IMG/VR virus record: IMGVR_UViG_3300025584_000284
Reading direction: 5' to 3' (one strand)
Length of the DNA stretch: 44,059 nucleotides
Source of the DNA: a virus
The notes below the pieces were generated by a model, which made no database searches, was not told where the DNA came from, and saw only the letters and a list, made by a program, of their open reading frames with translations. The first letter of the stretch is position 1. Each line of letters starts with the position of its first letter. Below are positions 17,011-36,854 of the stretch, piece after piece. The position numbers and the translations under genes are program-made.

Positions 17011-17580
17011 TTATTTCCAAGTATCACCATTCATCCATGTAATTAGTGAATATCGTATTCCATTTGTAATTGGTGTTATTCTATGTGATAGAAATGCAGG
17101 AAATATAATTATACTACCTCGTGTTCTTGTAGCGGTATAATTACTTTCTCCAGTTTCATTAGTAATTCCAAATTCTAAATCTCCACCATCATAACTATTT
17201 CCATCACTCAACTGAACAATAGCAGTTAATTTTCGTGTAGAAATTTCTTTTGCTCCACTATCAGTATGCCATTTGTATCTACCACCTTGTGTATATTTTA
17301 ATAACTTAACTTCTTCCATTTCTTTAATATCATAATTGTATGTGGAAACATTTGCCAATTCAAAAACCATTTTTAATTTATTAGTTAATTTTTCATCATC
17401 AAGTACAAGTTCTCTTGTATTACGAACTTCTTTATTAAGTAAATTTTTATCATAAGTTCCAGCAAGTTCTGAATCTTTTGATTCTTTACTTTCAAAATAT
17501 TCAATTAACTCTATACATTGACTTTCTGATAGAAAATTATCTCTATGAATAACAAACTGAAATTTATCATTAGTAATCAT
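17011..17580 (-). CDS. 2OG-Fe(II) oxygenase (prolyl-4-hydroxylase/PKHD-like)
   Basis: Motifs YKWHTD (HxD), YDGGDLEF and FPAFLSHRITP...RYSLITW. Confidence 0.92.
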   Translation of the reverse strand: MITNDKFQFVIHRDNFLSESQCIELIEYFESKESKDSELAGTYDKNLLNKEVRNTRELVLDDEKLTNKLKMVFELANVSTYNYDIKEMEEVKLLKYTQGGRYKWHTDSGAKEISTRKLTAIVQLSDGNSYDGGDLEFGITNETGESNYTATRTRGSIIIFPAFLSHRITPITNGIRYSLITWMNGDTWK

Positions 17581-19730
17581 TAATATCTTCCAGTCGTTGC
17601 AGTTCTTGCTATATTTATTTTATATTTATCTACATTAAGTGAATCCATATATAAATCGTTAACAACTTTATTATCAGAATAATCCCTATCAAAATTACCA
17701 CTTATTTCAAATGTTTCATCCAATTCTAATTCATTCACATTTTTAATATTTAAATACTTTCTATCTTCTTCATCTACATTAATTTTAAAATCTACTTTCA
17801 AATTAAAATCTGAATTTGGTTTGGTTTCAAAATTAATATTAATAATAAACGAAGTGTCCTTTAAATTAAATACTTTAAAATTATCTGTCATACCAAATTC
17901 TAAATTAACATTCTTTTGTAAACTATATATCAACCATACAAATCCTTTAACTTCATCAATTAATGAATTTATTAAAATTTCTTTAAAAGAAGATTCTCCT
18001 GATGATGGTGTTAAAAAAGAGTTTTTAAAAATACTATCATCTGAAACATTACTGTTACTTCCATCACTTTGAAAATTATAAAATGATGTATCCATTGCCC
18101 ATGATTGAGCCTTTGGCATAGTTTCATCTTGAGCCTCACCAATTGGTTTTGACATATCTTCATCTTTAACCAATCCTCTTTGATTTATTTTAAAAATATT
18201 CAAGAATAAATCTGTTAAATGTGCTCTTAAATGTCTACTAAAAATGTTATTTCTATAATCATTACTTATCCAATTTTTAAGTAAATTTTCATCCTTTGAG
18301 ATATCAAAAACATCTCTTTCTGTATCAAGTGGTGTATCCACTAAGGCATCTGTACCTTTCATTAAATTAATTCTACCAGATTTTTCAACATCACATTTAA
18401 AATTATGTTTAGTATCAAACAAAAACTTTAAACTACTTATAAAATCAACAGTAGTTTCTCTTGGATATCCAGGTATCCATCCCGCATCAAATGCAATTTT
18501 ATCATCTTTTGTAACTGCATCTAAATACATTTTAATAACATCAGGAGTTTGGTTCTTTTCCATTAGTGCTAAAGTTTTTGGAACTCCATTCTCTACTCCA
18601 ATATTCATATAAACCAATCCAGATTTTCTTGATTCATCTAAAAACTTCTCATTCATTTTTTTATGAGTTCTAAAATAACCACCGTATCTTATTTTTGGTA
18701 ATTCTCCCTTGTCAATTAAGTCATTCAATACATCAACAAATTTTTTATAATTACTTATTGAACCATTTATCAATGAATCTGTAAACCAAAAATTTTCAAC
18801 TCCATATTCTTTATTTAATTTTGTTATATCTTCAATTAACTTTTCAGGACTTCTGTATCTATACAATCGAGTCTCACTACAAAAAGTACATTTAAAAGTA
18901 CATCCTCTCGAACCTTGAATTGGTACTGTCAACTTTGGGCCAAAATCTGATGTTTTATCTTCTTTTCTAATTTCAGTATAACCTTTTAAAACTTCTTCAC
19001 TCCAAGTTGGTGTACTTAAAGTATTCAAATTCATTATCTGTAAATTGCCAGTATAAACTGGGGTTCTACCACTACGACCTGGTAGTAATGCCGTTGCAAA
19101 TGATGGTCTTAACTTATCCCACTTCCAAATTCCACTTGTATTTTCATAACTTCCAGTTTCTATTAAATCAGTTGCTAAATCTACAATGGTTTTCTCTCCT
19201 TCATTTGTACCACAACCTATGTCAATAAATTCTCTATACTTTCCTTTTCCTGGAATATCTCCATATCCTTCCTGTGTTTGGAATTTTTTAGAACTTTCAA
19301 CTAACCCACCATTTTCACCATACCAACAAAATGGACCACCATACCATATATGTATATTGGGATTAATTTGTCTTAAATAACGAGCAAGATAATCTGTTGT
19401 CATGATGTTTGATGAATATGTAGTAAAACTAACTACATCATATTCCGATAATTCTTTTATTATATCAAACCAAAATTCTTGAAACAATGGAACAATTTCT
19501 TCCCAAAAAACTTGTTTTGTACTCCAGGGATTATCTTGTGTCCATTTTTTGAAATACTCTTTATGATTATTTTTTAAATACAATGAACTCATCATATTAA
19601 TATCATATTGAGTTGAATTAAAACCTGCCTCCGTTAAGGCTGTATTTAAACTACCTAATGCAAATGAAGGTGTTGCTATAGACCATTGTGGACAAATACA
19701 TAATGCTATTTTTAAATCTTCTTTTTTCAT
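17580..19730 (-). CDS. Cobalamin-binding radical SAM enzyme (class B methyltransferase-like)
   Basis: N-terminal B12 domain (PQWSIATPSFALGSL, VSFTTYSSN, WYGGP), then SRGCTFKCTFC (CxxxCxxC), FWFTDS, IGVENG and GYPRET. The start is set at the TGATG overlap at 19730; the ORF track extends it to 19757. Confidence 0.9.
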   Translation of the reverse strand: MKKEDLKIALCICPQWSIATPSFALGSLNTALTEAGFNSTQYDINMMSSLYLKNNHKEYFKKWTQDNPWSTKQVFWEEIVPLFQEFWFDIIKELSEYDVVSFTTYSSNIMTTDYLARYLRQINPNIHIWYGGPFCWYGENGGLVESSKKFQTQEGYGDIPGKGKYREFIDIGCGTNEGEKTIVDLATDLIETGSYENTSGIWKWDKLRPSFATALLPGRSGRTPVYTGNLQIMNLNTLSTPTWSEEVLKGYTEIRKEDKTSDFGPKLTVPIQGSRGCTFKCTFCSETRLYRYRSPEKLIEDITKLNKEYGVENFWFTDSLINGSISNYKKFVDVLNDLIDKGELPKIRYGGYFRTHKKMNEKFLDESRKSGLVYMNIGVENGVPKTLALMEKNQTPDVIKMYLDAVTKDDKIAFDAGWIPGYPRETTVDFISSLKFLFDTKHNFKCDVEKSGRINLMKGTDALVDTPLDTERDVFDISKDENLLKNWISNDYRNNIFSRHLRAHLTDLFLNIFKINQRGLVKDEDMSKPIGEAQDETMPKAQSWAMDTSFYNFQSDGSNSNVSDDSIFKNSFLTPSSGESSFKEILINSLIDEVKGFVWLIYSLQKNVNLEFGMTDNFKVFNLKDTSFIININFETKPNSDFNLKVDFKINVDEEDRKYLNIKNVNELELDETFEISGNFDRDYSDNKVVNDLYMDSLNVDKYKINIARTATTGRY

Positions 19731-20320
19731 CACACAAAAGTATCTCCTACAGCCCAAGTAACTAAAGAATATCTATGTCCATTTGTAATTGGTTTTACTT
19801 CATGTCCATAAAATGATGGAAATATTAAAGCCCTGCCCTTTCTTGATTCAATGTGTGTACCATCGAAAAACTTAAATTCACCACCTTGATAATCCACTCC
19901 CTCATTACTTAAAAATATAATTATAGTTAACTTAACTACAGTAAAAGGATCAATGGGATGGAAATCTGAATGTGGTGTATACCAGTCCTCTCCATCATAT
20001 CTATGCCCCATAAGTTTATTTTTATATATACCTGAAATATTATATTTGAAAGATGTCGTGTTGGCTATTTCAATCAAACTCCAAATTTTATCTAAATATT
20101 TTTGTTCTTCAATATCAGCAATGTTTAACTTACAAATCTCATCGTCCATCATTGGTTGTTCTTCAACAATAGAATACGAACCTACTTTTGGTTTTGCATT
20201 ATTATCAATATATTTTCGTACTTCATTACATTCATCTTCAGTAAAGAAATTATCTCTTGTTAACCACCATCTAAATGATGGATTTTTTTTAAGAGTATCT
20301 ATATCTATTGGTTTATACAA
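19730..20320 (-). CDS. 2OG-Fe(II) oxygenase
   Basis: Motifs YTPHSD, YQGGEFKF and FPSFYGHEVKP...RYSLVTW. Confidence 0.92.
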   Translation of the reverse strand: MYKPIDIDTLKKNPSFRWWLTRDNFFTEDECNEVRKYIDNNAKPKVGSYSIVEEQPMMDDEICKLNIADIEEQKYLDKIWSLIEIANTTSFKYNISGIYKNKLMGHRYDGEDWYTPHSDFHPIDPFTVVKLTIIIFLSNEGVDYQGGEFKFFDGTHIESRKGRALIFPSFYGHEVKPITNGHRYSLVTWAVGDTFV

Positions 20321-20915
20321 AAGTATTTCCTATTATAAATTCTTGTAATGAATATCTAACACCACTTGTAACTGGTGTAACTCTGTGAAATAACAATGGA
20401 CAAAATATTAATAATGTTCCTTTTTCTTTTGGCATTTCATAAAATTCTAAAGTCTTTGGGTCTTGTATTGCTAATTGTGTAGAACCACCTTCATATTCGC
20501 TTGGAGCTGATAATTGAAGTATTGTAACTAATTTTCTTCTTGAACTCTTACCATTATTAAAATCTGAATGCCATGTGTAAAAATTATCTGATTTATATTC
20601 AATCAATTTTATATTATTTTCTGGTTCTTGTATATGAAGATTCCAAGATAAATGATTACACATCTTAGCCGCAATAAATAATTTCTGTTGTAATGAACTA
20701 TAATCCCCTACAACATAATCTCTCATATCTTTGTGTAAATACCATTCTGTAACATCTCTAAAATCTGTATTGTGATCATCACCAAAGTGGTCATCTAAAC
20801 AACCTTGTTCACTTTTTTCGGTATTCTTTATTCTTTCAACCAACTCATCACACTCATCATTTGTGAGAAAATCTGGTTTACTCATATACCACTGCCAATT
20901 ATTATTCTGATTCAT
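20313..20915 (-). CDS. 2OG-Fe(II) oxygenase
   Basis: Motifs YTWHSD, YEGGSTQL and LFHRVTPVTSGVRYSL. Confidence 0.92.
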   Translation of the reverse strand: MNQNNNWQWYMSKPDFLTNDECDELVERIKNTEKSEQGCLDDHFGDDHNTDFRDVTEWYLHKDMRDYVVGDYSSLQQKLFIAAKMCNHLSWNLHIQEPENNIKLIEYKSDNFYTWHSDFNNGKSSRRKLVTILQLSAPSEYEGGSTQLAIQDPKTLEFYEMPKEKGTLLIFCPLLFHRVTPVTSGVRYSLQEFIIGNTFV

Positions 20916-21417
20916 CTATCCATCCTTTTAAATAATCTGCAAAAATTCTATGTCCTTTTTCATTTGGATGTCCATTTTCACAAAAAACCTCATCTAAACT
21001 ATTTTTATCTTGTGTTATAACCTCATAAAAAGCTTTGTCTGTAAAATTATTAATATTTAAATCTTTTTGTGTTTTACCAAATGAAAAAAATAATATGTGT
21101 TCTACTCCAAGTGATTGTAAAAATGCCTGAAATAAAATTATATCATACATTTCCCAATCATATTTAGAACGACTTTCAGCAGTAAATCCTACAATAAATA
21201 TCGTTTCATTAAGAAGTTTTTGATTCTTATAAATCCACTTCATAGTATTAACTATGATTGTCTCATTACTACAACCACATATTGCCAAATTTATTTCTTT
21301 TAAATTTAATTCATCTGATAATAAATGACTAAATCTCGATTTCTTTTTAAATTTAAGTTCATCTCCCTCAACCCAACTACAACCATTCACATATAGAATT
21401 TTTTTATTTAAAACCAT
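20902..21417 (-). CDS. SGNH/GDSL-hydrolase-like protein
   Basis: Motifs VNGCSWVEG (block I Ser), CGCSN (block II) and GHPNEKGH (block V). Confidence 0.7.
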   Translation of the reverse strand: MVLNKKILYVNGCSWVEGDELKFKKKSRFSHLLSDELNLKEINLAICGCSNETIIVNTMKWIYKNQKLLNETIFIVGFTAESRSKYDWEMYDIILFQAFLQSLGVEHILFFSFGKTQKDLNINNFTDKAFYEVITQDKNSLDEVFCENGHPNEKGHRIFADYLKGWIDESE

Positions 21418-21432
21418 TACTTTATATTAAAG

Positions 21433-23193
21433 TTATTTATTATGCACTAAGTAACCCTCAGCATAATAATTATGTGTTCCATCTACTTCAAAATTATATA
21501 CAGTAACCTGTTCATCACTCAACTCAATAGTTTCAATAGTATGTTCCAATCCATCTACATGAAGTATTTTATCACCAATTGATAAATCACCAGCCTCTAC
21601 CCACTTACCATCAATATAAAATGGATGAACAGAAGTAGTTTTAATATTTCCATTTAAAATCATATAATATCTATCAGTATGTACATATGTTTTTGTTACT
21701 TTAGAATCAACAACTGAACTTGTTCCTACATCAAATGATTTAACAATATCACCTATCTCTACCTCTTCAATAGATTTTACTCCTTCATGCATTTGAATTT
21801 GAGTTCCACCAACGAAACATGGTGGTAAATTATGAACAAGAATGTCTGAACCAAAGTATGTATCAATCTCTTCAACATCTAAGGAATAAAAAGTAGTTTT
21901 TTCATTTACTAACGATATACTATCTATATTAATTTCCTCTTCAGAACTACTTAAAATTTTCATTCCAGTCTCAACATATTCAGGCATTTTAAAACTATAC
22001 TCTGAACCTGATTTTATAAAAAGTGATGCCCCAGTTCCTATTTTATATGAACTATTAATAAGATAATATTTATCTAATTCATCACTACTAAATCCAGTTA
22101 CAACTGAACTTGTAAGTTCAGCATTTTCTATAGATGAAGTTGTCCAACTCCACATATTACTTAATTGAAATGGGCCTGCTGTATCTTCTGGTTGTCCAGG
22201 AATATTATAAGATTGTACAATATCTCCAATTTGAATATCTTCAATATCTTTACTACTACCATCATGCATTCTAATTGGTGTTCCCGTTATAAAAGTATCA
22301 GGGTTATGTGCATAACTTATTTTATACTGATTACTACCACTAACAACTGGTGTTTTTCTACATGAGTATCCTCTTAAATCAGATGAATCTGAAGTTAAGT
22401 AAACACTTGAAGCAGTTGTGTGTAAAACCAACCCTCGAATAACATCTGTTTGTAATGAACCTACAAGTGTATCTGGAACAATATATTCTTCCACTACATA
22501 TCCTAAATCAACATAATCTGAAAGTGAACCCGTAGTAGCATCATTCAAATCAAAAAAGTAATTACCCCTTTTTAAATCTGCATTGGGTATTTTCACCACA
22601 ACATCTGGAACACCTGCTCCATTACTAAAATCTGCTGGTAAATCTGTATATTTTCTTGGTTGATAACTATACAATCCAGAAGAGCTTACATAATTATTAA
22701 AATAATATTTATTTCCAGAATAAGTACAGATTGAATTATTAGTATCAAATGCAATTTTCATCACAAAAACATTTGAATCAGATGAAGAAATTTCTGGGAT
22801 AACAACTGGATATGGGTCTACTAATATTTTCTCATATTCTATATCAGCAGAAGATACACTTGAACTCAAATGTGTTAAAAATCCATCTTGTGGTTTTGCT
22901 CCAACTTCAGTATTATCACAAACAACACAAAGTTTATTATAACCACCACTACCTAAAAAAGTATTTAATGCATCAAAATCTACCCAATTAGTATCTATAT
23001 TTCTCATTCGTAAATGAGTATTTATTTCTGCTAAATATATATCACCATCGTGTGCCATCCAATCATACATACCCAAAATACCCTCATTGTTTTGCTCACC
23101 AATCCAATGTTCACTTTGAGTAAAAAGATTAGCAACTTCTAAACTTTTGTCTCGTAAAGAACCACTATATATTGTTGAATCATAATTTGCCAT
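21433..23193 (-). CDS. Circularly permuted ATP-grasp-like domain fused to two tandem Hint (BIL-like) domains
   Basis: D44/E56-x-N58 (YDWMAHDGDIYLAEINT) precedes VVVKIP...G, VEEYI and DVIRG. Hint1 spans T300-N455 (TFITGT...ILVHN), followed by the linker LPP, Hint2 at C459-N585 (CFVGGT...TTSVHPF...YLVHN) and terminal K586. Confidence 0.8.
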   Translation of the reverse strand: MANYDSTIYSGSLRDKSLEVANLFTQSEHWIGEQNNEGILGMYDWMAHDGDIYLAEINTHLRMRNIDTNWVDFDALNTFLGSGGYNKLCVVCDNTEVGAKPQDGFLTHLSSSVSSADIEYEKILVDPYPVVIPEISSSDSNVFVMKIAFDTNNSICTYSGNKYYFNNYVSSSGLYSYQPRKYTDLPADFSNGAGVPDVVVKIPNADLKRGNYFFDLNDATTGSLSDYVDLGYVVEEYIVPDTLVGSLQTDVIRGLVLHTTASSVYLTSDSSDLRGYSCRKTPVVSGSNQYKISYAHNPDTFITGTPIRMHDGSSKDIEDIQIGDIVQSYNIPGQPEDTAGPFQLSNMWSWTTSSIENAELTSSVVTGFSSDELDKYYLINSSYKIGTGASLFIKSGSEYSFKMPEYVETGMKILSSSEEEINIDSISLVNEKTTFYSLDVEEIDTYFGSDILVHNLPPCFVGGTQIQMHEGVKSIEEVEIGDIVKSFDVGTSSVVDSKVTKTYVHTDRYYMILNGNIKTTSVHPFYIDGKWVEAGDLSIGDKILHVDGLEHTIETIELSDEQVTVYNFEVDGTHNYYAEGYLVHNK

Positions 23194-23236: not shown

Positions 23237-23680
23237 TCATATTCCTTTTATTTCTGTAAAAATATTTTCTTTCATAACTGATAATGCTGGTGTATTCCAA
23301 TCTTCTAATTTAATTGATGCGTAATTATACCCTTGTTTAACGATTTCATTACATCTCAACCATACTAAATCACTTCCCAATCCTTTGTTTCTATATTCTG
23401 GCATTATATAACGATTACATAAATAAGGATATTTTCTATTCCAATCTATAAAACACCAACCACACTCAGTTAAATAAAATGTCCAATTGTCTTTTAATCT
23501 TTGTTTTAATTCCGTTAAATCCCATTGTTTCCAAGGCCGTCCAAATGAATCTTTGAAGTTATCTAACTCTTCTGATACTACTTGTATCTGTTCTGAATGA
23601 ATATCATTGTAGTTTGTAAACTCTTGATACTTTTGAACTTCTTTTGGTTCGTAATTACTTAAATCTATCTTGTAATACAA
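23237..23680 (-). CDS. GNAT-family acetyltransferase
   Basis: Acetyl-CoA motif A (YIMPEYRNKGLGSDL) and motif B (WNTPAL); TTG start. Confidence 0.8.
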   Translation of the reverse strand: MYYKIDLSNYEPKEVQKYQEFTNYNDIHSEQIQVVSEELDNFKDSFGRPWKQWDLTELKQRLKDNWTFYLTECGWCFIDWNRKYPYLCNRYIMPEYRNKGLGSDLVWLRCNEIVKQGYNYASIKLEDWNTPALSVMKENIFTEIKGI

Positions 23681-23682
23681 AA

Positions 23683-23955
23683 TTATGTATCACTATCTAA
23701 ATCTAAACCAGTTCCTTGTAACATTGTCTTTGGAACTTTTCCACAATTTCCACAACTATAAACATCAATCGGTACTAATGCTTCTTTTCCTGTTGGTGAT
23801 ACAATTGCTGATAATCTTTTTATTATCGTGGATTGTATAAACAACACATTATTACATTCAGGATCATCACACCGTACGGTATCTGCTTTCGATAAATCTA
23901 CCTGTGGTTGTGCTTGTCGTGGCTGTTGGAACTGTCTTTGTGGTTTTGTACTCAT
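23683..23955 (-). CDS. Small Zn-binding hypothetical protein
   Basis: Motifs CDDPEC...CGNCG and a Q/P-rich N-terminus; GGAG RBS. Confidence 0.7.
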   Translation of the reverse strand: MSTKPQRQFQQPRQAQPQVDLSKADTVRCDDPECNNVLFIQSTIIKRLSAIVSPTGKEALVPIDVYSCGNCGKVPKTMLQGTGLDLDSDT

Positions 23956-30932: not shown

Positions 30933-33740
30933 TTAGAAATTAACACTTAACCCTAAGTTAAAGTATCTTGGTGTACCAAGAAATACTTCAGCGTTATGTG
31001 CTGAGTGAGTTTTACTCCCATAGCTATTGTATTGACTATGATCTACTGCATCTTGTACATATGTTTCGTCTAAAGCGTTAAACACATGAGCAAATAAAGA
31101 TATGTCATATCCACTAACTGGTAGTAAATATGAAGCATGTAAGTCCACCTTTGAATAAGATGGTGCTTCCCATACTTGTTCTCTGTCTGCATCTTCATCT
31201 GAACCATCGTATTCACGAGAATCAGGACTCCAATCACTATAGTTCTTATCATAAGAATTCCATAGTGCTGAAATTACTAATCCCTTTACAGGAAAAATGG
31301 TTGCACCAAGTGCATATGAAGTCTGTGGCATATCACCAACATTCAACCCGTCAAGGGCGTATTGATAATCTGTAGTGGTTAAACCAGTTACATTACCATC
31401 ATCATCATATTCATTTGATTGATACTTTCCATGAGCATCACCATCAAACTTCCAAGTACCAAGACTTACTGCTGCATCTATACGAACCAATTTATGTAGT
31501 TGTGTAGAAGCTTCAATCTCAAGTCCTTGATGTTTTTGTTGAATACCTGTTAAGAAAATGACATCAGTATCTCCTGAATCACCTTGTCCTGTGGTTACTG
31601 CTTTAGTAAGGTTTCTGTCTTTCCAATCTGTATTGTAAACATTTGCCTTAACAGCAAATCTTTCAGATTCGAAATTGACACCAGCTTCTGAACTAATGAA
31701 ACTTTCATTATTTGGATCAGAAGCAACCGTACCATCAAAGTAAATCACATTATCCATGATAGGTGGTTTTTCAACATATCCAATGTTAGCAAAAAGACTA
31801 ACATTATCATCTATGTCGTACATTGCTCCACCTTTGAACTGAGCAGCATAAATAGCATCAGCTTTTATTACTTCATCAGCAACTGAAAAGTGGTCTTGGT
31901 AAGAATACTTAATACTTGATAATCCACCCATACCATATAGATTTAGATTATCTTTACTATAATTACCTTGTACAAATCCACCCAACCAATCAACGGTAGT
32001 TTCATTGTGATAAGCGATTATATCACCTAACCCAACTCTTTTACCATCTGGTGCGTTATCATCAGCAAAATCCAAATAATAATCTCCACCTAATAAATCA
32101 CGAACTTCTCGTGCGTGTTCTATACCTGCGGTTCTCCAATCAATACCTACTTGTAACTTAAACTCATCACTAATATCGTAATTAAGTTTAGAAATTACAC
32201 CATAAGTATTTTGACGATTGATACTATTACGAAGAATACCAACTGATTGATTATTATCAACACCATGTGTTCGTGTAAGAGCTGACTTATCTACATATAC
32301 TACTGAATCATCTCCAGAATTATATGCTATAAGACTATTCCAATCACGAGTCCAGGGACCACGACCATAATAAAATTTATAGTCATCATCACCAAGATTA
32401 CCATCAGCATCAAATGTAGGAATCTTACCATAAGTTCCTGTTCCACCACCAGAACCACCTGACCAATAAAAGACTGAACTTAAACTTGTCTTATCATCTA
32501 TTGTCCAAAAATGATTTAGATTTACTAATGGTTTGTGAAAGTAGTTTTCTCTTTCGTTTAGATAATCACTTGCGTGTCTATCTTGTAGTCCACTATCAAA
32601 AAGTCCACCTACACCATACATATACCAGTATTGTTTACCTTTATATGATGGGTCAACTGGTGACCAGTTTTGATTAAACTTATGTCCTACATCTGCGAAC
32701 TTACCATCTTCACCAAGTGCTTCAGTATCATATCCATCTACACTTGCAGCAAAATCAGCGTCATAAGCACCGATATTCTGTTTGTATAGATTTTGTCCAT
32801 GTCGCTGTGGAGCACCGATTGCATATAATTCCAATCGATGGTCAGCATTTACTTGATAACTTGAACCAAAATAATATGCCCAAGCGTCTGTCCATGTCTT
32901 GTCAATGACACCATCACCTGTTTTACGAACTACAGTACCACTTAGGGCGAATTTATCACCAATAAGTCCTGAATTGTAATTCAATGTGGTTTTCAGAAAA
33001 CCCCCTGCACCACCTTCCTGTTTAAACTTACCACCTTTTGAAGCGGAAGCAGGATTTGTGATTATGTTCATCGTACCACCAATTGAGGGGGCAGCCAAGT
33101 TAACGGCACTTAATCCACGCTGCATCTGGATAGATTGAGCTGCATCTGCAACTCCATCCCAGTTAGACCAATAGACCCAACCGTTTTCCATATCGTTTTG
33201 TGGAACTCCGTTTATCATTACTGCTACATTCCTCTGATTAAACCCGCGAACATTGATACGGGCATCACCCGCACCCCCACCTTGTTGCGTAGCATATACA
33301 CTTGGTGTAGTATTTAAAGACATTGGTAAGTCTTGTGAACCAAGACGAAATTCAATTTCTTCTTTACTAACTGTAGTATAAGCAACAGGTGTTTTATCAT
33401 CAGCCCTTGAAGCTAAAACTTCAAGTGCAGACATCTCAAGTGCAGATATTAAAAGTGAGAAGTCTACGGTACTAGCCGTTCCCTCTACCACTTCAACCTC
33501 TACTGTATGGGATGCATATCCAATTGAAGAAGCTTTAATTGTATAAGTTCCTGCCCCTAAATCAATAGAGTAAGCTCCATCTGCATCAGCAGATGTACCT
33601 AAATCAGTTCCTTGTACTACAATATCAGCCCCAATCAATGGGTTCTTTTCTGTATCTGTAACTGTTCCGACTACCTGCCCATATAAGAACATTGGCATCA
33701 TCATTGTTAAAAATACAGATATTAGATTATTTTTTTTCAT
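30933..33740 (-). CDS. TonB-dependent outer-membrane receptor (signal peptide, carboxypeptidase-regulatory-like domain, plug, beta-barrel)
   Basis: Signal peptide ending LYG-Q; motifs GTVTD...PLIGADIVVQGT and plug RINVRGF...VMINGVPQND; barrel strands ending PRYFNLGLSVNF (terminal Phe). Confidence 0.93.
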   Translation of the reverse strand: MKKNNLISVFLTMMMPMFLYGQVVGTVTDTEKNPLIGADIVVQGTDLGTSADADGAYSIDLGAGTYTIKASSIGYASHTVEVEVVEGTASTVDFSLLISALEMSALEVLASRADDKTPVAYTTVSKEEIEFRLGSQDLPMSLNTTPSVYATQQGGGAGDARINVRGFNQRNVAVMINGVPQNDMENGWVYWSNWDGVADAAQSIQMQRGLSAVNLAAPSIGGTMNIITNPASASKGGKFKQEGGAGGFLKTTLNYNSGLIGDKFALSGTVVRKTGDGVIDKTWTDAWAYYFGSSYQVNADHRLELYAIGAPQRHGQNLYKQNIGAYDADFAASVDGYDTEALGEDGKFADVGHKFNQNWSPVDPSYKGKQYWYMYGVGGLFDSGLQDRHASDYLNERENYFHKPLVNLNHFWTIDDKTSLSSVFYWSGGSGGGTGTYGKIPTFDADGNLGDDDYKFYYGRGPWTRDWNSLIAYNSGDDSVVYVDKSALTRTHGVDNNQSVGILRNSINRQNTYGVISKLNYDISDEFKLQVGIDWRTAGIEHAREVRDLLGGDYYLDFADDNAPDGKRVGLGDIIAYHNETTVDWLGGFVQGNYSKDNLNLYGMGGLSSIKYSYQDHFSVADEVIKADAIYAAQFKGGAMYDIDDNVSLFANIGYVEKPPIMDNVIYFDGTVASDPNNESFISSEAGVNFESERFAVKANVYNTDWKDRNLTKAVTTGQGDSGDTDVIFLTGIQQKHQGLEIEASTQLHKLVRIDAAVSLGTWKFDGDAHGKYQSNEYDDDGNVTGLTTTDYQYALDGLNVGDMPQTSYALGATIFPVKGLVISALWNSYDKNYSDWSPDSREYDGSDEDADREQVWEAPSYSKVDLHASYLLPVSGYDISLFAHVFNALDETYVQDAVDHSQYNSYGSKTHSAHNAEVFLGTPRYFNLGLSVNF

Positions 33741-33818: not shown

Positions 33819-36800
33819 TTAGTTTGCATAATCTTGATCATCGTTATCTCCACTTAATGGTTGAATCTCACATGAATCATTATTGCAAAATTTATCTATT
33901 TCAGCCTCTTCATTTTTAATTACACCAAATGAAAGAGGTTTTAATTTTTTTAATTGTTTATTATAAGTTTTCTCATCTATTGCTTCATATGGCATTTGTT
34001 TGTAAGCTCCATAATCATGTCTTGGTAATAATGAAATTCCTTTTAATCTATATTGAAAATAATTCAATACATATGGTAGTTCTTCAGCTTCTGTTTCAGG
34101 ATTGAATGTTGCCGTACAACTAACTTGGTTATCTGCCCAATGTCGTTGTAAGAACGCGGCTAAACTGAATTGTTCCCAAATCGAAAGTTCAGCCGCAGTT
34201 CTTATACCTTCTCCAACATCTACTGGAACATCTACAACCATAGTTGTATTCTCCGAACCAAATGCTGGCTCTAACTTATAACCTGCTTTTTTCAATGGTT
34301 CTATTAATTCAGATTGATTTGATAATCTTACTCTCCGAATATAGAAACGACTTTCGGGATAATGTAATCCTGGAGTTGCTCCTGCTAATAATGAAACCGT
34401 TCCACTTGGTTTAACACTTGTGGTTTTAATTGATTTTGGTATGGCGAACCAATCAGAATATAATTTATCCCATTCTTGTATAACATCATATCCATCTTCT
34501 AACCAAGTTTTTAATTTATCTAATCCATGATTAGTAATGAATTGTGCAACTCCACTAACACTACATCCAATTCTTCTATTTCTCAACATAACTCTATTTG
34601 TATCACTCCAATGAGTTCTACCAAGTGTTACCGTTTTAGCATACAGATAAGCATATTTAAGTGTTCTTTGATAGTCCTCTAATGAGTCGTGATTGTTTGG
34701 AAATGTTTCTACAAGACAACAAAGTTCATAACTTTCCAAACTTTGTTCCAGGCAATTATGGATAAACAAACCAGATGAATCTAAATATTTGTTGTCTTTT
34801 GTAGATGTTATCACACCAAAATTATGTGTATCTTCAACAGTCATATCATAAACATCTTCATACCCATAAAACTCAACTGATACAACTTTATGATTCCAAA
34901 TACCTTGATTTTCCATACTTCTTTTAACATTAGAACAAGAATGACTGCAAGTTTTTCTTTTGGAAGCTTGATATTCTGTAAGTGTCTTATGTTCATTACA
35001 TACTGGACAGTTCCAATCAACCCACGCAGTTCTTGATTTTTTTATGTCGGATAAATGTTTTTTTACTTCATTGGTCATACCATTTTTAATCGATTCAATC
35101 ATAAAATCTCGTTGATTTTCCCAATTTTTAGTTGATTTTTTACCAATAGATTTTAATGCAGAATCTTTGTGATTTTTACCGTACATACCATTTCGCTCAC
35201 CGTAATGACCACCATTAATACGAGTAGTTTCTTTCATCTTTTCTACATTTACAGGGTTATGCATTGGATTTTTATCTAATCTATGTAATCTACTATGTTC
35301 TGATTGAGTAATAACATCTAAATTATCCCATGAATCATTTGTCTTATCAAAATCTATATGATGAATAGCATACTCTTTGGCGGTAGGCATATAACCAAGT
35401 TCTGATTCTGTGATTAATCTATACTGTCTTAATCCACTTGCTTTTTTCCCGGTACCTCGTATGTTTCTATAACCTTTATTACTAAAACTATTAAATGGAA
35501 ATACTGATTCATCTTTTTGTAAATCTCTAAGTTCTTTATATTCACCACTTCGTAACATAATTTTATGGTCAGGTGTTGCTAATAAATTAGAACCATCATC
35601 CAAAGTAAGTTTCCACACTTCTGTATTTTCTTTTGTTTTCCAAGTTTTAATTGATTGTTTGATGACTACTTTTCCATTTTCATCAACTGAATAAACTGGG
35701 TATTGAGTATCTACTAAATCTTTAATTGGAACTGTATTTCTACCATCAGCTACTGCTACTAATGTTTCACCAACAATACAAGGATTTCCACCCATAACTC
35801 TATGGTCTTTATTATCTCCACCATTTTGCATACGAGAAAATTTCCTCATATTTTCTAACCAAGCTAAACCAGGTTCTCCATTATCTACGATTCGTTTTGA
35901 AACTTCTGTATAATCCATACCAAGTTCTGCAAATATACTATTGTTTGAAGTCCACCCATATTGTTCTCTGTCTGGATTAACTTTATAATTTTTTAAATCT
36001 AAATATTCATCATCATGGGGATCACCGAACACAATCTCTGCTGTTCGTCTTACATTCCCTGCTACGACACATTTACCAATTAGGTTCATTATATCCACAA
36101 TTGTAGTTACGGTAATTAGTTCTCCACTATTCTTTTCTAATACTTTTCTTATATCTTCGTGAACTTCTTCTAATGGGTCTGGACCACTTGAAACACCGCC
36201 AAATCCTTTGATTGGTTCTCCTAATGCTCTAATCTTTGTATAATCAAACTCTACTGGGTGTGAACCATGAAAATAACTTTCTAATAATAACCTTAACGAA
36301 TCTACCCAACCTTCTCTTGTGTCTGGAATCTGAAATATTGTTGAATCCCTATCTTTATCTATACCTTTAACAAGTATTTCACCAGCACCCTTACAGTCAA
36401 ATCCAACACCAACACCTAACATACTTGCATCCATTAGAAAACAGAATGGTTTTGAGTAATCTTCTTTAAGTGTTTTAGTAGATACGAATGCACAATTATT
36501 TAGAGCTGCATATAATTTCTTTTCTTCTGTGATTGATGTTCCCATTGCCCATAAACCACGACCAGGTGGTAAAAATTTCATATTGAATATTCTATCATAC
36601 ATATCTTGTGCAGATTTCTGTGCTTGCCACGGATTCCAACCTAATTGATGAGAATTAATCCAATTCCATTGCATTGAATATGTTCCCTCTACAACTCTTT
36701 GGACGGTTTCCCACCATCTCTCATTTTTTCCATTCTCTTTGATACGGGAATAGGTTCTCATATAAACCAGTTCACCTAACCCATTAAAACCAAACGGTGG

Positions 36801-36854
36801 TTTTTTTCTTTTATATTTGTCGATAAAATTTTCCGATAACTTAAACTTTTCCAC
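33819..36854 (-). CDS. nrdJ: Adenosylcobalamin-dependent (class II, monomeric-type) ribonucleotide reductase containing an intein
   Basis: Motifs FLPPGRGLW, LNNCAF, GNVRRTAEI, NP-[intein]-CLEQ...CCLVE, TSVKPSGT and C-terminal CNNDSC. Confidence 0.95.
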   Translation of the reverse strand: MEKFKLSENFIDKYKRKKPPFGFNGLGELVYMRTYSRIKENGKNERWWETVQRVVEGTYSMQWNWINSHQLGWNPWQAQKSAQDMYDRIFNMKFLPPGRGLWAMGTSITEEKKLYAALNNCAFVSTKTLKEDYSKPFCFLMDASMLGVGVGFDCKGAGEILVKGIDKDRDSTIFQIPDTREGWVDSLRLLLESYFHGSHPVEFDYTKIRALGEPIKGFGGVSSGPDPLEEVHEDIRKVLEKNSGELITVTTIVDIMNLIGKCVVAGNVRRTAEIVFGDPHDDEYLDLKNYKVNPDREQYGWTSNNSIFAELGMDYTEVSKRIVDNGEPGLAWLENMRKFSRMQNGGDNKDHRVMGGNPCIVGETLVAVADGRNTVPIKDLVDTQYPVYSVDENGKVVIKQSIKTWKTKENTEVWKLTLDDGSNLLATPDHKIMLRSGEYKELRDLQKDESVFPFNSFSNKGYRNIRGTGKKASGLRQYRLITESELGYMPTAKEYAIHHIDFDKTNDSWDNLDVITQSEHSRLHRLDKNPMHNPVNVEKMKETTRINGGHYGERNGMYGKNHKDSALKSIGKKSTKNWENQRDFMIESIKNGMTNEVKKHLSDIKKSRTAWVDWNCPVCNEHKTLTEYQASKRKTCSHSCSNVKRSMENQGIWNHKVVSVEFYGYEDVYDMTVEDTHNFGVITSTKDNKYLDSSGLFIHNCLEQSLESYELCCLVETFPNNHDSLEDYQRTLKYAYLYAKTVTLGRTHWSDTNRVMLRNRRIGCSVSGVAQFITNHGLDKLKTWLEDGYDVIQEWDKLYSDWFAIPKSIKTTSVKPSGTVSLLAGATPGLHYPESRFYIRRVRLSNQSELIEPLKKAGYKLEPAFGSENTTMVVDVPVDVGEGIRTAAELSIWEQFSLAAFLQRHWADNQVSCTATFNPETEAEELPYVLNYFQYRLKGISLLPRHDYGAYKQMPYEAIDEKTYNKQLKKLKPLSFGVIKNEEAEIDKFCNNDSCEIQPLSGDNDDQDYAN
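34755..35780 (-). mobile_element. 342-aa intein with HNH homing endonuclease in the RNR active-site NPCxE motif
   Basis: Starts CIVGETLV, has block B LATPDHKI and HNH motif AIHHIDFDKTNDSWDNL...EHSRLH, and ends VEDTHNF...FIHN followed by the catalytic Cys. Confidence 0.93.

Follow-up and report, generated by a model that had tools for sequence, protein, structure and literature searches.

A probable self-removing Hint cassette in the C-terminal tail of a phage ATP-grasp-like protein

The window analysed here, 44,059 nucleotides in full (IMG/VR record IMGVR_UViG_3300025584_000284), derives from an uncultured T4-like marine phage of low GC content (about 30%). Its minus strand encodes a 586-aa protein in which a ligase-like N domain is followed by two tandem Hint domains, Hint1 and Hint2, separated by Leu-Pro-Pro. 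We consider it probable that Hint2 is an optional, self-removing C-terminal cassette of the bacterial intein-like (BIL) type, carried by an ATP-grasp ligase that resembles glutathionylspermidine synthetase (GspS) and YgiC. According to this reading, an ATP-grasp-type amide ligase (aa 1-299) would be permanently fused to an old, degenerate Hint1 and would end in a conserved [IL]PP(K) tail, and Hint2 would be a separate A-type BIL cassette that landed between Pro458 and the terminal Lys. The tandem layout would then reflect the stacking of Hint cassettes at a permissive C-terminal tail and not a device for LPP excision. A preliminary description of positions 21433-22296 (minus strand; aa 300-586 plus the stop of the 586-aa open reading frame, ORF) had instead proposed that the two Hints divide the catalytic roles, so that the protein donates a small LPP peptide or serves as a Hedgehog-like conjugation device; as a whole, that interpretation is partly supported. 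The named residues were verified codon by codon. The gene parts are as follows.

21433-23193, minus strand: whole ORF of 586 aa, consisting of the ATP-grasp-like N domain, Hint1, LPP, Hint2, Lys and TAA
22297-23193, minus strand: N domain (aa 1-299), predicted circularly permuted GspS/YgiC-like ATP-grasp fold
21829-22296, minus strand: Hint1 (aa 300-455), degenerate Hint with Thr300, G396/Y399, D444 and V453-H454-N455
21820-21828, minus strand: Leu456-Pro457-Pro458, conserved host tail [IL]PP(K), here doubling as linker to Hint2
21439-21819, minus strand: Hint2 (aa 459-585), A-type BIL-like, with Cys459, Thr520-x-x-His523, His574 and His584-Asn585
21433-21438, minus strand: Lys586 (+1 residue of Hint2) and TAA stop, from the codon-by-codon check

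An optional Hint domain in a conserved tail

The protein belongs to a large, metagenome-only family composed of an N domain of about 300 aa, Hint1 and a tail. Hint1 is present in every member and ends in ILVHN, and the tail that follows reads [IL]PP in 55 of 67 distinct Hint1 sequences. Orthologues of 451-470 aa stop after VHN-[IL]PPK, with no second Hint, showing that [IL]PP is the host's own conserved C-terminal tail. One of these Hint2-less orthologues shares the neighbourhood of the window gene, comprising polymerase, clamp loader, a small GNAT-like gene, the ligase gene, 2-oxoglutarate (2OG) oxygenases and a radical S-adenosylmethionine (radical-SAM) protein. The window protein ends VHN-LPP-[Cys...His-Asn]-Lys-stop, and comparison with the LPPK end of the orthologues therefore places Hint2 exactly inside an ancestral LPPK end.

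Full-length orthologues of the 586-aa protein are 82-92% identical to it. The same layout was recovered from different samples, on 18 contigs or more and also in several IMG/VR records. The preliminary description had considered an assembly duplication, and an origin of the second Hint as a mis-assembled duplicate is extremely unlikely, since the two Hints are about 30% identical, share no DNA repeat and recur in the same arrangement in these independent assemblies. A search of IMG/VR with the full-length protein returned no related loci, which were found with Hint2 as the only query. No full-length relative turned up in the phage GenBank collection, where matches were confined to the Hint level and included a Hint1-like domain of phage NCTB.

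The number of extra Hints differs among relatives, which carry 0, 1, 2 or 3. On a host tree built from the N domain plus Hint1, these architectures are interspersed with high support, as in (P0026 x2,(P0115 x0,P0112 x0)) with support 100 and (P0024 x1,(P0105,P0100 x0)) with support 97. Thus, extra Hints have been gained or lost several times. The junctions after Hint1 read LPP, IPP, IPPK, IPPGK, IPTK[FL] or IPPKF; with two or three extra copies, the linkers between extra Hints span 1-6 residues (K, KF, KL, SRL, RF, FSIR and others). As expected from the preliminary description, the inter-Hint junction is short and Pro-rich in homologues, and C459 and N455 are kept. The IPPGK-Cys junction is that of a 600-aa clade whose second Hint ends VLVSD-ESETE and lacks the terminal His-Asn. 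This ending was observed in the largest family clade (P0030, P0047, P0088 and about 60 relatives; L011, L012), where the second Hint keeps Cys1 and, judged from these residues, could cut at its N-terminus only.

Hint2 itself has a clear identity. Its best Pfam match is PT-HINT (PF07591; E 9.7e-24, 84.6 bits, gathering cutoff 27.7), and by sequence the closest domain of solved structure is the C. thermocellum BIL 2LWY (E 4e-18, 38-39% identity). In the AlphaFold model of the protein (mean predicted local distance difference test score, pLDDT, 77; LPP linker <50), the best structural match of the predicted Hint2 fold is Tetrahymena BIL2 (6Y75; Z 21.4, root mean square deviation (rmsd) 1.3, 131 residues), with Z 20.4 to 2LWY and Z 18-20.6 to mini-inteins; for 2LWY and 6Y75 the rmsd is 1.3-1.5 across about 130 residues. 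The residues C459, T520-x-x-H523, H574 and H584-N585, followed by K586 and TAA, agree with the Cys1, TxxH, VHN, single Lys and stop listed in the preliminary description. These residues and the matches to 2LWY and 6Y75 also bear out its proposal that Hint2 is equipped for an N-terminal thioester and for cyclisation of Asn585 without a +1 nucleophile, as far as sequence and model can tell.

A-type BILs were described by Amitai 2003 and Dassa 2004, according to the reviews PMC4031507 and PMC7765530; these domains cleave at both ends and can ligate via a free amine (PMC4031507; PMC7765530). Hint2 shares with them, as represented by 2LWY, the Hint fold, the N-terminal Cys1, TxxH, His-Asn and the lack of Cys, Ser or Thr at +1. 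Its location also agrees, in a fast-evolving host that looks non-essential (dN/dS 0.7 for the N domain), where it is optional, and it is found on unrelated proteins as well. By sequence and predicted structure, Hint2 is thus an A-type BIL-like domain. It differs from the known examples in lying at the very C-terminus before a single Lys, directly behind a degenerate Hint, and in being phage-encoded; Lys at +1 is, moreover, a family-wide feature here (64%).

Other classes of Hint domain fit less well. Canonical mini-inteins (Ssp/Npu DnaB, gp41-1) have the same fold and match Hint2 in the residues of blocks A, B, F and G, and Hint2 resembles inteins in its presence/absence polymorphism at one site and in a history that conflicts with that of the host. 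However, the +1 residue of Hint2 is Lys586 instead of the Cys, Ser or Thr of a canonical class-1 intein, the domain does not interrupt an active-site motif of an essential protein, and it has neither a homing endonuclease nor a C-extein beyond the single Lys with which Hint2-less orthologues also end. Although PF07591 is its best Pfam family, no toxin domain follows as in pre-toxin HINT proteins; there is nothing except Lys after Hint2. In the Hedgehog protein the Hog Hint likewise stands C-terminal to a releasable or transferable cargo, but the one residue after Hint2 leaves no sterol- or adduct-recognition region. In contrast to pre-toxin HINT and Hog proteins, the protein described here is a phage enzyme fusion of intracellular type.

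To describe the family, we carried out an exhaustive HMMER search, which collected 16,793 proteins at E up to 0.001, mostly via Hint2; the following statistics refer to the best 145 representatives at 50% identity. At least two full-length domains are present in 92 of the 138 representatives that hold one or more, and successive domains are separated by 12 residues or fewer in 104 of 151 cases (KG, KGG, KGGG, K and similar). Cys1, TxxH and HN are all kept in 250 of 289 domains. The residue after HN is Lys in 175 of 272 (64%) and Cys, Ser or Thr in 17 of 272. Tandem Hints with short gaps are therefore common family-wide, and the two-Hint micro-extein is not a special construction of this gene. 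In the Hint-domain tree, copies within one protein are often sister sequences, indicating local duplication. We found no description of tight tandem Hint, BIL or intein arrays with linkers of 1-6 residues in the literature searched. Previous work on BIL domains has centred on a small number of bacterial proteins and a single ciliate locus.

Exchange of Hint2 between genes and constraint on its sequence

The history of Hint2 departs from that of its host. Host proteins P0001 and P0009 are sisters (support 100) and 68% identical, and their Hint2 domains are 48% identical. The copies in P0015 and P0020, two hosts that are 31% identical to P0009, have 65-72% identity to the P0009 Hint2. In P0015, too, the copy stands at IPP^K, here in front of another type of Hint. 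In the Hint-domain tree, the window Hint2 nests among cassettes of other proteins (support 97), and the Hint2s of P0009, P0015, P0016 and P0020 form a separate clade (support 99). Constraining the Hint2s of the P0001/P0009 host clade to be monophyletic was rejected in the approximately unbiased (AU) test (delta lnL 68, p-AU 1.6e-5).

Close copies are also found in unrelated genes. The window Hint2 shows 95% DNA identity to the first Hint of a 463-aa Hint-only protein, with 3 differences over a core of ~310 nt. This Hint-only gene (L008, 8001-9392) encodes a protein that starts Met-Gly-Cys, holds two BIL-type copies and a Hint1-like domain ending ILVHN-stop, and begins one base after a preceding glycosyltransferase-like gene. 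Three phage proteins carry cassettes of 83-84% identity at their C-terminus: a PKD protein and an InlB-B-repeat protein, both of which end VHNK-stop, and a 241-aa protein, in which VHNK is followed by a further 8 residues. These comparisons show that Hint2 has been exchanged between genes. Together with the changes in copy number, the exchange and the 83-95% identity to cassettes on unrelated proteins cast doubt on the statement in the preliminary description that the protein is something other than a host of a selfish intein. By this sequence evidence, Hint2 behaves like a mobile, optional cassette.

Selection acts very differently on the three parts of the gene. Compared with two orthologues, dN/dS is 0.70-0.74 for the N domain, 0.33-0.42 for Hint1 and 0.03-0.04 for Hint2, and dS is similar across the parts (0.09-0.13 for one orthologue and 0.17-0.26 for the other). 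Within the close clade, the sequences thus indicate that Hint2 is inherited vertically under strong constraint at the protein level. Such constraint would be expected if an inactive cassette spoiled the host protein, and it also leaves room for a useful activity. A separate observation concerns the N domain, which evolves fast and yet keeps its putative Mg/ATP residues. Evolution of this speed is unusual in housekeeping-type enzymes and more typical of proteins that interact with the host.

The selection pattern also bears on the idea that both Hints are catalytically silent structural modules and that the protein stays full-length. Hint1 has indeed been retained despite the loss of its catalytic residues, and some Hint-like domains are non-catalytic. 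But Hint2 keeps every catalytic residue at its very low dN/dS, most family domains keep Cys1, TxxH and HN, and the nearest solved relatives of Hint2 are active BILs. We therefore regard two silent modules as improbable.

If Hint2 does remove itself, the following sequence of steps would apply. Cys459, aided by Thr520 and His523, would turn the Pro458-Cys459 peptide bond into a thioester, which would be either hydrolysed or captured by the amine of Lys586. Asn585, aided by His584, would then cyclise and cut the C-terminal junction. The tail left on the host, ...VHN-LPP or ...LPP-K, would almost match the one found in orthologues that the cassette never entered. The near-universal Lys at +1 and the LPPK end of Hint2-less orthologues make capture by Lys586, which would restore LPP-K, an attractive possibility.

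Several points weigh against self-removal of a mobile cassette. A broader constraint that places all Hint2s of ATP-grasp hosts in one clade was not rejected (p-AU 0.097), and the case for exchange therefore rests on the narrower AU test and on the matching cassettes of unrelated genes. These sequences could also go back to one old insertion at PP^K with subsequent replacement and losses. The analysis turned up neither an endonuclease nor any other means by which the Hint2 cassette could move. Cleavage by Hint2, its products, its rate and every chemical step are what we infer from residues and relatives. If the thioester is hydrolysed, the product would lack the terminal Lys that Hint2-less orthologues keep. 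Moreover, self-removal does not obviously demand a dN/dS of 0.03, so that the cassette may also do something useful. Finally, the strict conservation of HN-[IL]PP(K) behind a His-depleted Hint1 hints that the tail itself is functional.

The family offers a natural experiment, in which one phage enzyme occurs with 0, 1, 2 or 3 C-terminal BIL cassettes that are exchanged between genes, are far more constrained than their host and nearly always precede a Lys. Should self-removal be all that the cassettes do, they would represent a mobile protein element without an endonuclease, widespread in marine phages. If rejoining or transfer via Lys is true, they would provide an ATP-independent protein ligation chemistry of practical interest.

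Hint1, its tail and the alternatives of peptide release and conjugation

Hint1 shows only a weak N-terminal match to Pfam. It aligns to Hint2 with 30% identity (E 4e-15), and its model superimposes on the Prp8 intein with Z 14.9 over 126 residues (rmsd 2.0). Sequence and model thus agree that Hint1 is a real Hint fold. The Thr at the Cys1 position (T300) and the C-terminal V453-H454-N455, which is followed by L456-P457-P458, are as given in the preliminary description. That description was also right that block B has no His, whereas its location of the block at IGTGASLF did not hold: alignment to Hint2 pairs T520 with G396 and H523 with Y399, in KSGSEYSF. The block-F His is lost as well, since H574 of Hint2 aligns with the conserved D444. 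Position 1 is Ser in 38, Thr in 18 and Cys in 1 of the 67 distinct Hint1 sequences, and 44 of the 67 have no internal His at all. Hint1 does not combine a position-1 nucleophile with a block-B His, our measure of catalytic competence, and it probably no longer cuts N-terminally at Thr300, to judge from these substitutions. At its other end, H454-N455 is at least 90% conserved in the family, alongside the block-F replacement D444.

A relative of Hint1 was observed in phage NCTB (LT598654.1; L028, 1-3462), where a Hint1-type domain, preceded by a Gly6 linker, forms the end of a 1304-aa "large intein domain protein"; the gene that follows carries the annotation of an aggregation-factor-like protein. 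The NCTB domain is intact, with Cys1, TQQH, the same DTYY block F and VHN, and Hint1 is therefore a decayed member of an active subfamily. An HN at aa 296-297, just before Hint1, was considered as the relic of a further Hint and rejected, because it is clade-specific and lies inside the ATP-grasp fold.

These features bear directly on the peptide-donor model of the preliminary description, in which cleavage at Asn455 exposes the N-terminus of LPP and Hint2 activates the C-terminal end, giving one LPP-X or LPPK per protein molecule. Tailoring of LPP might fall to the neighbouring 2OG oxygenases, radical-SAM protein and GNAT-like protein, and its ligation to the ATP-grasp domain. In keeping with this, H454-N455 and [IL]PP(K) are conserved down to about 30% host identity even without Hint2, the N domain has a GspS/YgiC-like ligase fold that keeps D44, E56 and N58, and the GNAT, 2OG oxygenase and radical-SAM genes are syntenic in relatives. 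However, Hint1 has neither the block-B nor the block-F His, and Hint2 is dispensable and exchangeable, so that the pair is not a conserved device; the Hint2-less VHN-[IL]PPK ends and the variation from 0 to 3 copies speak against co-adaptation of the two Hints. In addition, the second Hint of the largest clade no longer ends in His-Asn, linkers differ in length (3-5 residues) and, beyond [IL]P, in sequence, synteny is weak evidence in a generally collinear region, and a 586-aa single-turnover precursor for each tripeptide would be costly. The peptide-donor model thus appears quite improbable.

In a joint reading, the HN-[IL]PP(K) tail would be a working part of the enzyme and no relic, combined with peptide release at Asn455 and with splicing of Hint2 through a Lys amine. 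The tail would be acted or built upon by the ATP-grasp domain, perhaps together with the GNAT, 2OG oxygenases and radical-SAM protein, Asn455 would release it as a small modified prolyl peptide, and Lys-flanked BILs would excise themselves, rejoining Pro458 to Lys586 and restoring the LPPK end. We hold this combination to be rather a long shot. If it is true, it would constitute a virus-encoded self-cleaving peptide scaffold together with a new variant of Hint splicing in bacteria and phages.

The close structural match of Hint2 to BIL2 of the Tetrahymena BUBL locus raises the alternative of a conjugation device, similar to Hedgehog or BUBL. The Pro458 thioester would be attacked by an amine (of a protein Lys, a polyamine or a small molecule), and the ATP-grasp-Hint1 protein, or LPP after cleavage at Asn455, would become covalently attached to a target. 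BUBL1 BIL2 (6Y75/6TMM; PMC8616854) activates the upstream C-terminus and passes it to a Lys epsilon-amine, conjugating the upstream domain through an isopeptide bond, and is a known precedent both for the model of the preliminary description and for rejoining through Lys586. Very strong purifying selection on Hint2 would suit such a device, as would its position at the extreme C-terminus, with no C-extein for rejoining. The same cassette also ends the adhesin-like PKD and InlB-B-repeat phage proteins, where covalent anchoring would be sensible.

The arrangement is nevertheless not a BUBL-type BIL-cargo-BIL unit. In BUBL the cargo between the BILs is a folded ubiquitin-like domain of about 76 residues; here it is a linker of three residues, and the upstream Hint has no Cys1, block-B His or block-F His. 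BUBL is eukaryotic, and conjugation is known there; for the phage protein it would be a hypothetical activity. Moreover, orthologues work without Hint2, the cargo of downstream copies in arrays of 2-4 comprises only 1-6 residues, the cassette has been swapped between unrelated hosts, and the device would need an acceptor, of which none is known. Conjugation is therefore unlikely, and we favour self-removal of an optional cassette.

The ligase-like domain and its genome setting

The N domain has no Pfam match for aa 1-299, even at E 10; the N domain of one orthologue gave a faint match to Dala_Dala_lig_C (E 0.12). Modelled alone (pLDDT 86.4), it matched E. coli YgiC (7UKA) with Z 12.8 in VIA-align and eukaryotic glutathione, glutathionylspermidine (GspS) and trypanothione synthetases with Z 10-12, whereas ordinary ATP-grasp enzymes reached only 5.8. 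The top 10 structural matches all belong to the permuted GspS/YgiC superfamily, and Foldseek gave E 2e-6. The predicted structure thus indicates that the N domain is a GspS/YgiC-like permuted ATP-grasp amide ligase fold. Compared with E. coli YgiC/YjfC, the synthetase domain of GspS and eukaryotic glutathione synthetases, the fold is the same (Z 10-12.8 across 220-257 residues), and an invariant D44...E56-x-N58 stands early in the chain, as expected for a permuted Mg/ATP site. In contrast to these enzymes, the domain is about 300 residues long, is 9-14% identical to them with no match at the Pfam or NCBIfam level, and is fused to Hints. Residues W30, D44, E56, N58, T59, P101, K162 and P196 are invariant in the family; the spacing of D44, E56 and N58 presumably agrees with that of the Mg ligands of GspS.

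A search for stand-alone N domains without Hint1 yielded only truncated fragments on short contigs. In the literature searched, we found no paper on a design that joins a permuted ATP-grasp ligase, a degenerate Hint and BIL cassettes; nor did we find a description there of the host protein itself, a compact GspS/YgiC-like ligase that is fused to a degenerate Hint and carries a conserved prolyl tail.

The window contains genes for a family-B DNA polymerase (44% identical to that of the closest cultured relative), clamp loader, helicase and nrdJ, and numerous sugar and tailoring genes. The neighbours of the ligase gene are as follows.

23237-23680, minus strand: upstream GNAT-like gene, 147 aa (Pfam Acetyltransf_1, E 7e-6)
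17011-21417, minus strand: downstream genes for a 171-aa ORF, two 2OG-Fe(II) oxygenases, a B12/radical-SAM protein and a third 2OG oxygenase

The GNAT-like gene invariably adjoins the ligase gene in the main clade and was seen in L001, L003, L006, L011 and L012. An ORF of 45-50 residues was looked for beside the ligase gene and none was present; the 44-aa neighbour of the distant relative P0107 likewise gave no significant hit to the window, its best one (E 0.46) falling within the GNAT-like gene. The downstream 2OG oxygenase and radical-SAM neighbours are syntenic in relatives. Synteny with these genes and the GNAT-like gene was considered as evidence for a pathway and down-weighted, because these phages are collinear throughout the region and the synteny is missing from the distant clade L013.

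Upstream of the GNAT-like gene, positions 23683-23955 (minus strand) encode a 90-aa protein with two Cys pairs, resembling a zinc ribbon, and an acidic C-terminal tail, LDLDSDT. L003, L006 and L007 likewise have a gene for 84-90 aa two genes upstream of the ligase. We take the protein to be reminiscent of the LysW-type carrier proteins of ATP-grasp ligases, as a candidate likeness.

The nrdJ gene (B12-dependent ribonucleotide reductase; 33819-36854, minus strand) is interrupted by a canonical intein with an HNH endonuclease (Intein_splicing, aa 367-679; HNH_3, aa 479-522), the sequence of which is unrelated to Hint1 and Hint2. Within the replication module, positions 30933-33740 (minus strand) encode a 935-aa TonB-dependent receptor with CarboxypepD_reg and Plug domains in a SusC/RagA-like layout. 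This receptor and the GC content of about 30% point, on sequence grounds, to a Bacteroidota host for the phage. In the close relatives L003, L004 and L005, a glutamine-synthetase-like gene (1579-2571) lies between the TonB receptor and DNA polymerase genes.

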